Assembly (NCBI GenBank): GCA_965216585.1
Contig: CBDCGC010000003.1
Coordinates: forward strand, 2,337,219-2,401,218
From: an uncultured Candidatus Binatia bacterium
GTDB lineage: Bacteria; Desulfobacterota; Binatia; HRBIN30; CADEER01
Reading direction: 5' to 3'
DNA: 64,000 nucleotides
Under the pieces are notes generated by a model. It saw nothing but the letters and a program-made list of their open reading frames with translations. It made no database searches and was not told where the DNA came from. This document shows, piece after piece, positions 12,065 through 18,867 of this stretch (its first letter is position 1; the number at the start of each line of letters is the position of its first letter). The position numbers and the translations under genes are program-made.

Positions 12065-13051
12065 TCAGTAGAGACTCTTCTCGCCCGGAGGTCTGGTTCG
12101 CCACCGCTTGTGAAACCAAATCCAGTGGTCGGGGTGCTTTCGCAGAATCTCCTCGATGGCGCCGTTGCACCGCTCGGTCGTGCGCTGGATGTCGGCTGCA
12201 CGATCGCCAGTGTCGGCGACCTCGATGTCGGGCAAGAAGACGACGCGGTGGCGCTCGCTCTCGCCTTCGCGGACGATGAAGATCGGAACGATCGGTGCTC
12301 CGGTGTGGTGGGCCATCCATGCCGGCCCGGTCGTCGTGCAGGCGGGAATACCAAAGAAATCGGCAAAGACACCGGCGTTGGCGGTTTGGTTCTGATCGGC
12401 GAGCAGGGCAATCATCTTCTTGTCGCGCAGGGCCCGCAACAGCGCGCGCGCGGCGCTCTTCTTGGGCACGGAAACCGAACCGGCGCCGGCCCGGAGATCG
12501 AGGATGAGACGATCGACGAGAGGGTTGCGCATGGTTCGGTGGGCGAGGGTAACCGGATAGCCGAGCAGGCCGTGCGCATGCGCCAGTAGCTCGAAGTTGC
12601 CGAAGTGGGCGGTCAGCATGATTCTGCCCTGACGATCTACGTCTTCGACGACCGACGTCCAGCGCTCGCGATCATCGATGGTGATGTAGCGATCGATGTC
12701 GCCGGCCGTGAGCGAGCGGAAATGGCACACCTCCGCCAACATCCGACCGAGGTTGCGACATGAGCGGCGCAGTACGGTTTCGTTCTCACCCAGCGAACGC
12801 TCGGGAAACGCGCGCGCCAGGTTGGCGAGGGCGACCCGCCGTTTGCTTTGGTCGACATAGTAAAACGCTTCGCCGATCTTGGCTCCGATGGCCAAGGCGC
12901 GGCGACGCGGCATCGAGCCCAGGAGCGCCAGGGCGGCTCGAACGGCACCGTATTCGAGCCGGTCGCGCGCGGTGATCGACGGCGCCGGCGTGCTACAACC
13001 TCGCGGCGAAGGCTTCTGCCTCGCGTGTTTGAAATCCGCTGTAGACCTCAC
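12065..13051 (-). CDS. LpxL/HtrB-family lipid A late acyltransferase (lysophospholipid acyltransferase superfamily)
   Basis: HFGNFE motif (the HX4(D/E)-type LpxL box) and N-terminal ...NLARAFPERS region typical of Kdo2-lipid IVA lauroyl/myristoyl transferases. Start at 13051 overlaps the upstream gene by 58 nt; the alternative ATG at 12913 is less consistent with the family N-terminus. Confidence 0.7.
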   Translation of the reverse strand: MRSTADFKHARQKPSPRGCSTPAPSITARDRLEYGAVRAALALLGSMPRRRALAIGAKIGEAFYYVDQSKRRVALANLARAFPERSLGENETVLRRSCRNLGRMLAEVCHFRSLTAGDIDRYITIDDRERWTSVVEDVDRQGRIMLTAHFGNFELLAHAHGLLGYPVTLAHRTMRNPLVDRLILDLRAGAGSVSVPKKSAARALLRALRDKKMIALLADQNQTANAGVFADFFGIPACTTTGPAWMAHHTGAPIVPIFIVREGESERHRVVFLPDIEVADTGDRAADIQRTTERCNGAIEEILRKHPDHWIWFHKRWRTRPPGEKSLY

Positions 13052-13562
13052 GGTCGATCTCGCGGTACTTCTCCAGCATGTCCGTCGCCCGCTGGGTGGC
13101 CTCTTGCTCGGCGGCGAGATCGTCCAGCTTTCGCTGGATCCACGAGATGTGCCACTTCTCGTCTTTCGTCACCTGATCGAGGATGCGCATCGTCTCGGGG
13201 TCGACATCCGGCCGCCGCGAGTGCTCCTGATAGCGCGCGTACGATCTCTCTTCGACGACCACCGTCAACGCCAGCAGATCGATCAGGCTCCTCGGGATGG
13301 TCCGCCGGCCGATCTGCTTCTGGTAGCCGTCACTCACCGGCAGCGGCTTCGCTCCCAGCTTGGAAATGCGCTCGGTCCACAACCAAGCGTGGTGAGTTTC
13401 TTCGGCAACGTGCAACGTCAACTTGACTTGCGCTTCCCGGTCATCGCGCAACCACTTGGTCAAACGCAAGAGCAAGCCTGCACCGTGCAACTCGGCATCG
13501 CGATAGTACGAGAAGATCTCCACCAAACGCGGATCCGTGCTCATCACACCCCCACCTCCCAT
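12993..13562 (-). CDS. ferritin-like di-iron carboxylate protein (putative oxygenase/hydroxylase)
   Basis: 189 aa with paired E...EXXH motifs (HVAEETHH, EERSYARYQEH, DEKWH) characteristic of the ferritin-like di-iron superfamily (MiaE/COQ7/rubrerythrin-like). Embedded between two LpxL-like genes. Confidence 0.55.
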   Translation of the reverse strand: MGGGGVMSTDPRLVEIFSYYRDAELHGAGLLLRLTKWLRDDREAQVKLTLHVAEETHHAWLWTERISKLGAKPLPVSDGYQKQIGRRTIPRSLIDLLALTVVVEERSYARYQEHSRRPDVDPETMRILDQVTKDEKWHISWIQRKLDDLAAEQEATQRATDMLEKYREIDREVYSGFQTREAEAFAARL

Positions 13563-13586
13563 CAGCCACTCGTGTCTCCTACTCGA

Positions 13587-16425: not shown

Positions 16426-16429
16426 GCGC

Positions 16430-18097
16430 TCACTTGACGGCGCTCAAGCGCGGCGCCTTTTCGCGCTGCACCGCACGCTCGAGACCGGCGCGCACGAAGC
16501 CGCGGAAGAGCGGGTGGCAATTGGTCGGACGCGATTTGAACTCGGGGTGAAACTGGCAAGCGACGAACCACGGGTGCTCGGGAATCTCGACGATTTCGAC
16601 GAGCGTGCCATCCGGGGAAACACCCGACAACACCAACCCGGCCTTCTCCAGTTGGTCGCGGTAGTCGTTGTTGACCTCGAAGCGGTGGCGGTGGCGCTCG
16701 TCGATCTCCGTGCAGTCGTAGATCGCCGCCGCCTTGCTACCCTCGCTGAGGACACAGGGGTACGAACCGAGTCGCATGGTGCCACCCTTGTCGGTGACCC
16801 GCTGCTGATCCTTCATCAGGTGGATGACGGGATGCTGCGTGCGCTCGTCCACTTCGATCGAGCTGGCGCCATCGAGGCCACACACGTTGCGTGCGTACTC
16901 GGCGACCGCCATCTGCATACCGAAACAGATTCCGAAGAACGGGATCTTGTTTTCGCGGGCAAAGCGAACCGCTTCGATCTTGCCCTCGGCGCCGCGCGGT
17001 CCAAAGCCCATCGGCACCAAAATGGCGTCGACTTCCTCGAGGTCTGGCGGCAGCCCATCCTGTTCGGCCTTCTCCGAATCGATGAAGCGCAGATCGACCT
17101 TGCACTGATTGGCGATCCCACCGTGGGCGAGAGATTCGTTCAGACTCTTATACGAATCGGTGAGGTCGACGTATTTGCCGACGACGCCGATGGTGACGAC
17201 CTTTTCAGCATCGCGAACGACGCGAAGCGTATGCCGCCACTTTTCCAGGTTGGGCGACGCCGTCCACATATTGAGCTTGTCGACCAGGCGCTGGTCGAGT
17301 CCTTCGTCGTGAAAGGCGAGCGGCACTTCGTAGATGCAAGCGACGTCGCGCGCCGTGATCACCGAGCTCTCGTCGACGTTGCAAAAGTGGGCGATCTTCG
17401 ACTTCACGCTGCCGTCCAGGGCGTGCTCGGTGCGGCAGAGCAGAATGTCGGGTTGAATTCCCAGACCGGTCAGCTCCTTGACGCTGTGCTGCGTCGGCTT
17501 GGTCTTGATTTCGCCCGCCGCGGCAATGAACGGCACCAACGTGAGATGGACGTATAGAACGTTTTCGCGACCGCGTTCCCACCCCATTTGGCGAATCGCC
17601 TCGAGGTAGGGAAGGCTTTCGATGTCACCGACGGTGCCCCCCACCTCACCGATGAGGACGTCATAATCCTCTGCGGCGGCGAGAACGCGCCGTTTGATCT
17701 CGTCGGTGATGTGGGGAATCACCTGCACCGTGGCACCGAGGTAGTCGCCGCGCCGCTCGCGGTTGATGACGGCGTCGTAGACGCGGCCGGTGGTGAAGTT
17801 GTTCTTCTGGCTCATGCGCACCGAGAGGAAGCGCTCGTAGTGACCGAGATCGAGATCGGTTTCGGCGCCGTCGTCGGTGACGAACACTTCACCGTGCTGG
17901 AACGGGCTCATCGTCCCCGGGTCGACGTTGATGTAGGGATCCATCTTGAGAATCGTGACCTTCAAGCCGCGACTCTCGAGCAGCGCCCCGATCGATGCGG
18001 AGGCGAGGCCCTTGCCGAGAGAAGAAACGACACCGCCGGTCACGAAGATGAACTTGGTCTTGGCCCGACTACCTTCACTCATGACATCCCCTCCCAC
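16430..18097 (-). CDS. pyrG: CTP synthase
   Basis: [27 protein letters not shown] synthetase domain, plus the C-terminal glutamine amidotransferase (GICFGMQ...). ATGA overlap with the kdsB stop. Confidence 0.95.
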
Positions 18098-18867
18098 TAC
18101 GAACGACCCGATTCGACCAGCTTCCGCACAATATCTAGATCCGCTGGCGTGTCCACCTCCACGCCCGCATCCGGCACTTCGACGACGCGAATTCGATAGC
18201 CGTTCTCGAGAGCGCGCAACTGCTCGAGCTTCTCGGCGCGCTCCAGAGGAGTCGGTGCCAACTTCGCGTAGGTCAACAAGAAGTCGCGGCGAAACGCGTA
18301 GAGACCGATGTGGCGATAGGCACGGCCGTCCCCGTTTGGGCTACCGTCGCGCCAGACCGGAATGGCGGCGCGCGAAAAATAGAGCGCGTCACCGCTAGCG
18401 CCGGTAACGACCTTGACGACGTTGGGGTTCGCCAGCTCGGCGGCGCCGACAATTGCCGTCTTCAGTGTCGACATCGGCAGCTCGTCGTCGGCGAGCATCG
18501 GTCGGACCGCCGCCGCGACGGTTTCCGGATCGAGCAACGGCAGATCGCCCTGGACGTTGACGACGATCTCGACATCGAGATCGCGCACCACCTCGGCAAT
18601 GCGATCCGTCCCGGTCTGGTGGTGCGGGCTGGTCATCGCCACCTTGCCGCCAAAGGACAGGACGGCGTCGCGAATGCGCTCGTCGTCCGTCGCTACCAGA
18701 ACCGCATCGACGCCGCGTGCCCGTGCCGTCCGGTCGTAGACATGCGCGATCATCGGCCTGCCGCCGATGTCGGCGAGCGGCTTGCCGGGGAGGCGGGAGG
18801 ACGAGTAACGCGCCGGAATGACGGCAACGACCGAGCCCTGCAACCGATCCTGTCCACCCCTAGCCAA
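18097..18867 (-). CDS. kdsB: 3-deoxy-manno-octulosonate cytidylyltransferase (CMP-Kdo synthetase)
   Basis: [31 protein letters not shown]...[14 protein letters not shown] KdsB signature. Confidence 0.9.

Follow-up and report, generated by a model that had tools for sequence, protein, structure and literature searches.

A ferritin-like di-iron-carboxylate protein paired with an LpxL-family acyltransferase in Candidatus Binatia: a candidate route for oxidative modification of a lipid-A acyl chain

Modifications of the acyl chains of lipid A are known from few enzyme types, namely LpxO, LpxP, PagP and the deacylases LpxR and PagL. The acyltransferases LpxL, LpxM and LpxP use acyl carrier protein (ACP)-bound chains as donors and require the Kdo2 moiety (Kdo, 3-deoxy-D-manno-octulosonate), and in the AcpXL-LpxXL system of Rhizobium the genes that make the donor are clustered with the transferase. 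The DNA analysed here is a stretch of 64,000 nucleotides (nt) from a Candidatus Binatia bacterium (contig CBDCGC010000003.1). The whole stretch is called the window, and coordinates refer to it unless another locus is named. On its minus strand, a gene for a soluble ferritin-like di-iron-carboxylate protein, designated Ferr, overlaps the gene for an LpxL/HtrB-family acyltransferase, LpxLb, and the two are inherited together across the class. The best reading of these data, which we hold with slightly less than even confidence, is that Ferr is a di-iron oxygenase or desaturase and that its substrate is the acyl chain transferred by LpxLb.

The proposed role of Ferr is similar to that of LpxO, in that both would involve an O2-dependent change of a lipid-A secondary acyl chain laid down by an LpxL- or LpxM-type enzyme. 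However, LpxO is membrane-bound, has the Asp/Asn beta-hydroxylase fold and acts after transfer, whereas Ferr is a soluble ferritin-like protein of 183 amino acids (aa) with no similarity to it. The LpxP and AcpXL-LpxXL systems offer a second likeness, as a specialised LpxL paralogue installs an unusual chain that is supplied as acyl-ACP. In those systems the chain comes from enzymes of the fatty-acid-synthesis type and a special ACP, while the Ferr module has the di-iron protein only and no ACP gene nearby. For the mechanism, the closest likeness is to the soluble acyl-ACP desaturases (PF03405), in which a soluble di-iron four-helix bundle acts on carrier-bound chains, as is proposed for Ferr. 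The features of the module are as follows.

12993-13544, minus strand: Ferr, soluble di-iron-carboxylate protein of 183 aa from an uncharacterised ferritin-like family; the longest open reading frame (ORF) is 189 aa, from 13562.
13555-13559, minus strand: GGAGG, a Shine-Dalgarno-like motif 10 nt 5' of the probable Ferr start, read from the sequence.
12065-13051, minus strand: LpxLb, LpxL/HtrB-family acyltransferase and conserved partner of Ferr (PF03279, E 7.5e-56, 189.9 bits; HFGNFE dyad).
12993-13051, minus strand: overlap of the 3' end of Ferr with the 5' end of LpxLb, 59 nt in different frames, read from the sequence.

Conservation of the pair was assessed in 80 species-level loci with Ferr relatives, which were taken from Genome Taxonomy Database (GTDB) genomes, chosen for the presence of Ferr, and compared with the window proteins. 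Four of the 80 end too early to judge, leaving 76 informative loci. An LpxL-family gene lies 3' of Ferr on the same strand in 65 of these, mostly in Binatia, and this recurrence across loci argues that the adjacency is not due to chance. The full arrangement of kds genes, a second LpxL-family gene (LpxLa), Ferr and LpxLb occurs in 28 of the 80 loci. At 35 or more loci, the Ferr and LpxLb genes stand alone as a pair amid unrelated genes; at one of these loci (L042), the neighbours encode a haem-oxygenase-like protein, a DUF5667 protein, an M50 peptidase and a thioesterase. LpxLa is missing from more than half of the loci and is present only in relatives with the full kds operon, and at two loci (L018 and L030) Ferr comes immediately after kdsD. 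The first-pass annotation of this DNA had proposed to check the conservation of an lpxL-ferritin-lpxL triad. The triad is not conserved, and it was rejected as the functional unit because LpxLa is dispensable. The coupling of Ferr to a downstream LpxL-type gene, which had also been claimed, holds class-wide and in changing surroundings. The conserved unit is the pair Ferr-LpxLb.

A reverse search was done with LpxLb as the query against metagenome contigs. Ferr was found upstream in seven of the seven informative loci whose LpxLb is at least 52% identical, and LpxL homologues at 34-44% identity were mostly without an upstream Ferr. In a neighbour-joining tree of 177 LpxL-family sequences, 71 of the 73 Ferr-linked proteins fell in one clade, which contained no unlinked members and two members whose upstream sequence is missing; LpxLa fell in a separate clade of 34 sequences. 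The remaining two Ferr-linked proteins, from loci L117 and L121, form a deep separate lineage in which the gene order is FolB-Ferr-LpxL.

Among the relatives, the Ferr-LpxLb junction is short throughout; the first candidate start of LpxLb usually lies about -20 to +90 nt from the Ferr stop, with a 4-nt overlap in several loci, and such tight spacing or overlap fits co-translation. Judged from the sequence, the overlap reported earlier for the window is real, and its length is 59 nt when the stop codon is counted, not 58. On the LpxLb side, GTG 13051 is the sole canonical start 5' of the conserved N-terminal 'DRLEY' motif, the next in-frame start being codon 47. On the Ferr side, ATG 13562 opens the longest ORF (189 aa) and has AGGAG 13 nt before it, and the second ATG is at 13544 (183 aa). 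The start at 13544 is preferred because the identical database protein (P0001) is 183 aa long, because all homologues begin at this second Met, and because GGAGG lies 10 nt upstream. Thus, for the ferritin-like protein first described as 189 aa long, the ORF and both ExxH pairs were confirmed, and the length is probably 183 aa. Judged from its sequence, Ferr is soluble, with no transmembrane segment or signal peptide, a highest 19-residue hydropathy of 0.93, and an isoelectric point of 6.1. An apparent in-frame fusion of Ferr and LpxLb at locus L002 was rejected, as it consists of two same-frame ORFs with a stop codon between them. In a metagenome fragment, P0143, a single ORF joins the C-terminal part of Ferr to an LpxLb-type N-terminus by a linker of about 50 residues; this could be a natural fusion, or an artefact of assembly or of a frameshift, and it is given little weight.

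In an alignment of 40 family representatives, with identities as low as 21%, no residues other than Y14, H52 and H132 are invariant, and E18, E49, E98 and E129 are the only nearly invariant ones. E18, E49xxH52, E98 and E129xxH132 make up the canonical E/ExxH/E/ExxH set of di-iron ligands, and Y14 is additional to it. Ferr therefore has the E...ExxH...E...ExxH ligands of the ferritin-like superfamily, along with its four-helix-bundle core. This conservation bears out, at the level of sequence, the earlier view that the gene is real and encodes a conserved di-iron-carboxylate protein.

Ferr scores above no Pfam or NCBIfam cut-off. Its matches to Pfam Ferritin (PF00210, 20.9 against 24.5 bits) and Rubrerythrin (PF02915, 18.7 against 22.8 bits) are both sub-threshold, and COQ7 (NF033656) gave 15.8 bits against a cut-off of 180. 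No Pfam match was obtained to MiaE or to the aldehyde-deformylating oxygenases (ADO; PF11266, Ald_deCOase), and none at E<=0.01 to the acyl-ACP desaturases (PF03405), whose subunit is about 360 aa compared to the 183 aa of Ferr. The first-pass annotation had set the proposed chemistry apart from the Fe/2-oxoglutarate route of LpxO. This distinction stands, as Ferr has no Pfam or NCBIfam match to the Asp/Asn beta-hydroxylase family, has no transmembrane segment and is unrelated to LpxO. The family is small, as 313 of 1.84 billion cluster representatives belong to it at E<=1e-3, and the LpxL-linked form comes overwhelmingly from Candidatus Binatia metagenome-assembled genomes.

Further observations concern other members of the family. 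A Ferr-family domain is fused to a C-terminal TIR domain (PF13676, E 6e-27) in a 333-aa protein, P0418, on a contig of 38,031 nt, with no obvious rationale. Locus L072, also on a 38,031-nt contig, has its Ferr match at 6967-7494. A Ferr relative lies directly 3' of a FolB-like dihydroneopterin aldolase gene in L088 (5636-6594, labelled Myxococcota) and in L117 (791-2839, on a very GC-rich metagenome contig).

The AlphaFold2 model of Ferr has seven helices and is of high predicted confidence (predicted local distance difference test 93.9, predicted template modelling score 0.88). In fold alignments, about 170-178 residues of the model could be superposed on ADO, MiaE-like, PaaC-like and R2 proteins, which are substrate-oxidising di-iron enzymes, compared to only about 135-140 residues on Dps and bacterioferritin. 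The best structural matches are aldehyde-deformylating oxygenases. In addition to the core, the conserved helices at 74-80, 116-126 and 150-180 match ADO/MiaE-type enzymes and not the four-helix subunit of a cage. In sequence, cyanobacterial ADO, the MiaE-like protein and PDB 3ez0, a protein of no known function, are only 13-18% identical to Ferr, which has no Pfam membership. A further difference from ADO is that Ferr-LpxLb is a conserved module without an aldehyde-forming reductase.

Links to carrier proteins were found among the relatives of Ferr. A PP-binding domain lies at the C-terminus of P0142 and P0177, two of the distant representatives of the family. With P0142 as the query, at least 764 proteins were matched at E<=0.001; the PP-binding domain was present in 120 of the 120 listed, and the P0142-type proteins with a taxon label are from Gemmatimonadota. 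Window Ferr and P0142 align over 164 residues with 41% identity (E 3e-38), and they have in common both the ligands and the YYR, HAWLWT and YQ motifs of the second shell. In two Gemmatimonadota contexts, the Ferr-ACP fusion gene is the last gene of a conserved operon with genes for a beta-ketoacyl-ACP synthase III (KAS III)-like protein, an NAD_binding_4 reductase-like protein, a class-II aminoacyl-tRNA synthetase-like ligase and a methyltransferase, and with an unknown ORF of 243 aa. At an Acidobacteriota locus, an unfused Ferr (35% identical) overlaps a stand-alone ACP gene, in a cluster that also has genes for a fatty-acyl-AMP-ligase-like protein (FAAL), a phosphatidylethanolamine N-methyltransferase (PEMT)-like protein, KAS III, an AurF-like protein and a reductase. 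These appear to be uncharacterised biosynthetic clusters; they are held by loci L081-L084 (about 3078-8873) and L086 (583-6809).

The Gemmatimonadota fusions are thus of the same family as window Ferr, with the same ligands and the YYR and HAWLWT motifs, and differ from it in the C-terminal ACP domain, in the operon around them and in not being beside LpxL. Fusion to a carrier protein favours an enzyme that acts on carrier-bound acyl groups, and iron storage would not account for such a fusion. Because LpxL, LpxM and LpxP take their chains from acyl-ACP, the ACP links of the relatives can be tied to the pairing of Ferr with LpxLb.

In the mechanism that we favour, Ferr would be a cytoplasmic di-iron-carboxylate enzyme that uses O2 and an electron donor to introduce a hydroxyl group or a double bond into the fatty acyl chain handled by LpxLb. 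The chain would most likely be modified while on ACP and before transfer, and LpxLb would then attach the modified chain to Kdo2-lipid A in a secondary acyl position. In an alternative order, the modification would follow the transfer. What the data show directly is the gene order, the conserved di-iron ligands, the helical-bundle fold, the joint inheritance with one LpxL subfamily and the ACP links of the relatives; that Ferr is catalytic and acts on an acyl chain, the type of oxidation, the electron donor and the lipid-A acceptor are inferred, and so is the hydroxylation or desaturation put forward by the first-pass annotation. The two genes may be regarded as a module inserted into an operon for the supply of cytidine monophosphate (CMP)-Kdo, and in this genome they would be co-transcribed with that supply and with a second late acyltransferase. 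The requirement of LpxL, LpxM and LpxP for Kdo2 fits the placement of LpxLb in a Kdo operon. A dedicated ACP for the module was considered and rejected because the search of the window and the Binatia loci for an ACP gene was negative; a housekeeping ACP would therefore have to serve.

In the full-text literature, no earlier account was found of LpxL having a ferritin-like or di-iron partner. Ferr-LpxLb is new as a candidate system, and it is a candidate for a new enzymatic route to a type of envelope modification that is already known. A broader proposal, which is doubtful at present, is that Ferr founds a new family of minimal (about 180 aa) soluble di-iron oxygenases or desaturases with carrier-bound acyl groups as their substrates. 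In Binatia, such an enzyme would feed hydroxylated or unsaturated acyl-ACP to a co-evolved LpxL paralogue, in an O2-dependent remodelling of lipid A that is independent of LpxO and LpxP, and in Gemmatimonadota and Acidobacteriota the same domain would serve ACP-based lipid or natural-product pathways. If the favoured reading is true, the di-iron partner of an LpxL paralogue would be a new enzymatic route, would offer a first insight into the envelope chemistry of Binatota, a phylum that is uncultured and widespread in soil and sediment, and would reveal the function of an unannotated ferritin-like family with ACP-fused members. Since the module has only two genes, it is directly testable by heterologous expression in E. 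coli.

Several results weigh against this reading. The profile search of PDB sequences placed Ferr nearest to the Dps-like protein PA4880 (E 6e-10) and then to bacterioferritins, with the MiaE-like protein only at 5e-7, and the ligand set of Ferr is identical to that of bacterioferritin ferroxidase centres. Eleven loci, from Binataceae or unclassified, have Ferr without an LpxL partner; at one of these (L070), the lone Ferr adjoins DprA and a Bmp-family binding protein. Other Ferr relatives adjoin FolB or an SDR-HAD gene. The synteny counts were drawn from related lineages and so are not independent events. There is no ACP gene in the window or in any fetched Binatia locus, and no reductase or ferredoxin gene near Ferr-LpxLb. 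The NCBIfam models for lipid-A acyltransferases are reached by neither LpxLa nor LpxLb (best score 156.5 against a cut-off of 248), and because neither paralogue reaches any NCBIfam cut-off, the lipid-A acceptor is an assumption. Finally, the Binatia are uncultured.

Part of this evidence would be explained if Ferr were a bacterioferritin- or Dps-like ferroxidase or peroxide-detoxifying protein with no direct role in lipid metabolism, its position beside LpxLb being inherited synteny. We consider this unlikely. Symerythrin is also among the best PDB sequence matches, the sub-threshold Pfam matches to Ferritin and Rubrerythrin point the same way, homologues are labelled 'bacterioferritin' or 'rubrerythrin' in their source annotations, and the Ferr of Binataceae is not linked to LpxL. 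PA4880, as described in PMC11150526, is a 12-mer with bacterioferritin-type di-iron centres within the subunit. It and the bacterioferritins are the closest solved proteins by profile, with an identical E/ExxH/E/ExxH centre within one subunit, and they differ from Ferr in its conserved extra C-terminal helix, its inter-helix elements, its coupling to an acyltransferase and its ACP-coupled relatives. The alignment to PA4880 covers helices B-D only (query 32-145).

A clustering with rubrerythrin- or Dps-type proteins had been named in advance as a check on the first-pass idea, and the outcome is divided. The profile ranking favours PA4880 and the bacterioferritins, and it points the opposite way to the fold alignments, which are longer to ADO, MiaE-like, PaaC-like and R2 proteins. 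Taken together, the two comparisons do not tell an oxygenase from a ferroxidase. The ferroxidase explanation is opposed by the extra conserved helices, which resemble those of ADO/MiaE-type enzymes, and by the haem-ligand position. The Met that binds haem in bacterioferritin, which we take from the mapping of E. coli Bfr to correspond to T50 of Ferr, is not a conserved Met in this family, as position 50 varies among T, A, M and R in the homologue alignment. It is also opposed by the behaviour of the pair, which travels as a unit to unrelated contexts, defines a monophyletic LpxL subfamily and recurs in the second LpxL lineage (L117 and L121), and by the ACP-fused or ACP-adjacent relatives, 35-41% identical, in biosynthetic operons.

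Somewhat less likely again is a catalytic Ferr-LpxLb module whose target is not lipid A but a different lipid, for example an aminolipid, a lysophospholipid or some other glycolipid, and whose location in a Kdo operon is secondary. LpxLa and LpxLb are LpxL-family members. They are 30% identical to each other, both have the HX4(D/E) catalytic dyad (HLGNWE in LpxLa, HFGNFE in LpxLb), and both exceed the PF03279 (Lip_A_acyltrans) cut-off of 22.3 bits, with 120 and 189.9 bits. The acceptor of both would be lipid A. However, PF03279 includes enzymes that do not act on lipid A, the model for the phosphatidylinositol mannoside (PIM) acyltransferase, NF005919, scores 84.5 bits, and the lipid-A cut-offs were not reached. 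The pair lies away from any lipopolysaccharide (LPS) gene in more than 35 loci, and a Pfam scan of 39 window ORFs across 1-62 kb turned up no further lpx gene, with about 12 smaller or unscanned ORFs outside the scan. A lipid-A acceptor is favoured, on the other hand, by the 28 or more loci in which the pair is inside kdsB-pyrG-kdsA-kdsD with a second LpxL paralogue, by the best-scoring NCBIfam models, which are lipid-A lauroyl acyltransferases, and by the general dependence of LpxL enzymes on Kdo.

It is improbable that Ferr is a non-catalytic partner of LpxLb that senses iron or O2, or that serves as a scaffold and so adjusts how active or how stable the acyltransferase is. Tight pairing with overlapping reading frames would suit such a partner, no redox partner is encoded nearby, and P0143 reads through from Ferr into LpxLb. 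The read-through in P0143 may be an assembly artefact, however, and the complete, strictly conserved di-iron ligands together with the ACP fusions of relatives point to chemistry on a tethered substrate. Very improbable is a role as an ADO-like enzyme on fatty aldehydes from an adjoining LuxC/LuxE fatty-acid reductase, or as a Kdo oxidiser like KdoO, which would suit the structural matches to ADO, the LuxE-LuxC-aminotransferase-alcohol dehydrogenase (ADH) cluster convergent to the operon (6829-12052) and the Kdo genes that share the operon with Ferr, because LuxC/LuxE adjoin the operon in only seven relatives (for which the LuxC/LuxE pathway was down-weighted) and never the stand-alone pair, the cluster is on the opposite strand, Ferr-LpxLb is kept without any kds gene and Ferr has no Pfam Ald_deCOase match.

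The operon in which the Ferr-LpxLb module lies runs from 18867 to 12065 on the minus strand in the order kdsB-pyrG-kdsA-kdsD-LpxLa-Ferr-LpxLb. The genes upstream of the module are listed here in that order.

18097-18867, minus strand: kdsB, CMP-Kdo synthetase, first gene of the operon (PF02348, E 1.2e-57; NF003952, 312.6 bits against a cut-off of 193).
16430-18097, minus strand: pyrG, cytidine triphosphate (CTP) synthase (NF003792 equivalog, 851.8 bits against 308).
15586-16425, minus strand: kdsA, Kdo-8-phosphate synthase (NF003543 equivalog, 408.6 bits against 242).
14619-15623, minus strand: kdsD/kpsF-type arabinose-5-phosphate isomerase with an SIS and two CBS domains (TIGR00393, KpsF/GutQ, 324.2 bits against 203.7).
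13587-14594, minus strand: LpxLa, LpxL/HtrB-family acyltransferase (PF03279, E 1.5e-34, 120 bits; HLGNWE dyad).

The successive intergenic gaps from kdsB to LpxLb are -1, +4, -38, +24, +42 and -59 nt. The minus-strand frames are favoured over the long antisense ORFs by the GC content at codon positions (about 0.8 at the third position). The operon is flanked by a convergent zinc-dependent ADH (Zn-ADH) gene, whose end is separated by 12 nt from the LpxLb stop, and, 5' of kdsB, by a divergent gene; therefore, the seven genes make up the unit. Scans of 11800-19200 for promoters and terminators gave no more matches than shuffled sequence. The ORFs and profile searches support the seven-gene Kdo/acyltransferase operon of the first-pass annotation at these coordinates. 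As for the gene names given there, kdsB, pyrG and kdsA are above their cut-offs, while the isomerase passes at the KpsF/GutQ subfamily level only, since it scores 376 with the KdsD equivalog model and the cut-off is 505.

The gene divergent from kdsB (18931-19965, plus strand) encodes a 344-aa protein rich in Cys, Pro and Thr, with repeats of the form 'CP..(V/M)..FPP..CPICATPTPTP' and no Pfam match. Its N-terminal part has a dockerin/EF-hand-like motif, 'CDCDADGRVSVAELV', which recurs as 'GDCNGDGAVRVNELI' in an M28 peptidase (20141-21520, plus strand). On the other side of the operon, the convergent genes are all on the plus strand and encode a LuxE-like acyl-protein synthetase (6829-8283), a LuxC acyl-CoA reductase (8204-9499), a class-III aminotransferase (9370-10773) and the Zn-ADH (10778-12052). 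From its gene content, this cluster looks like a pathway from fatty acid to aldehyde and on to an amine or alcohol.

Other oxygenase genes are found in the window. The region 1211-5356 has a tandem pair of cytochrome P450 genes (1898-4359), a gene for a luciferase-like monooxygenase (4304-5356) and one for a glutathione S-transferase, and a third P450 gene is located at 50119-51309. This density of oxygenase genes is consistent with an aerobic, hydrocarbon-oxidising lifestyle. Near the far end of the window (57960-61810, plus strand), a gene for an SNF2-family helicase is followed by one for a protein with a YqaJ-like viral recombinase domain, and the AT skew rises at 62-64 kb; this region may mark the boundary of a prophage or mobile element.

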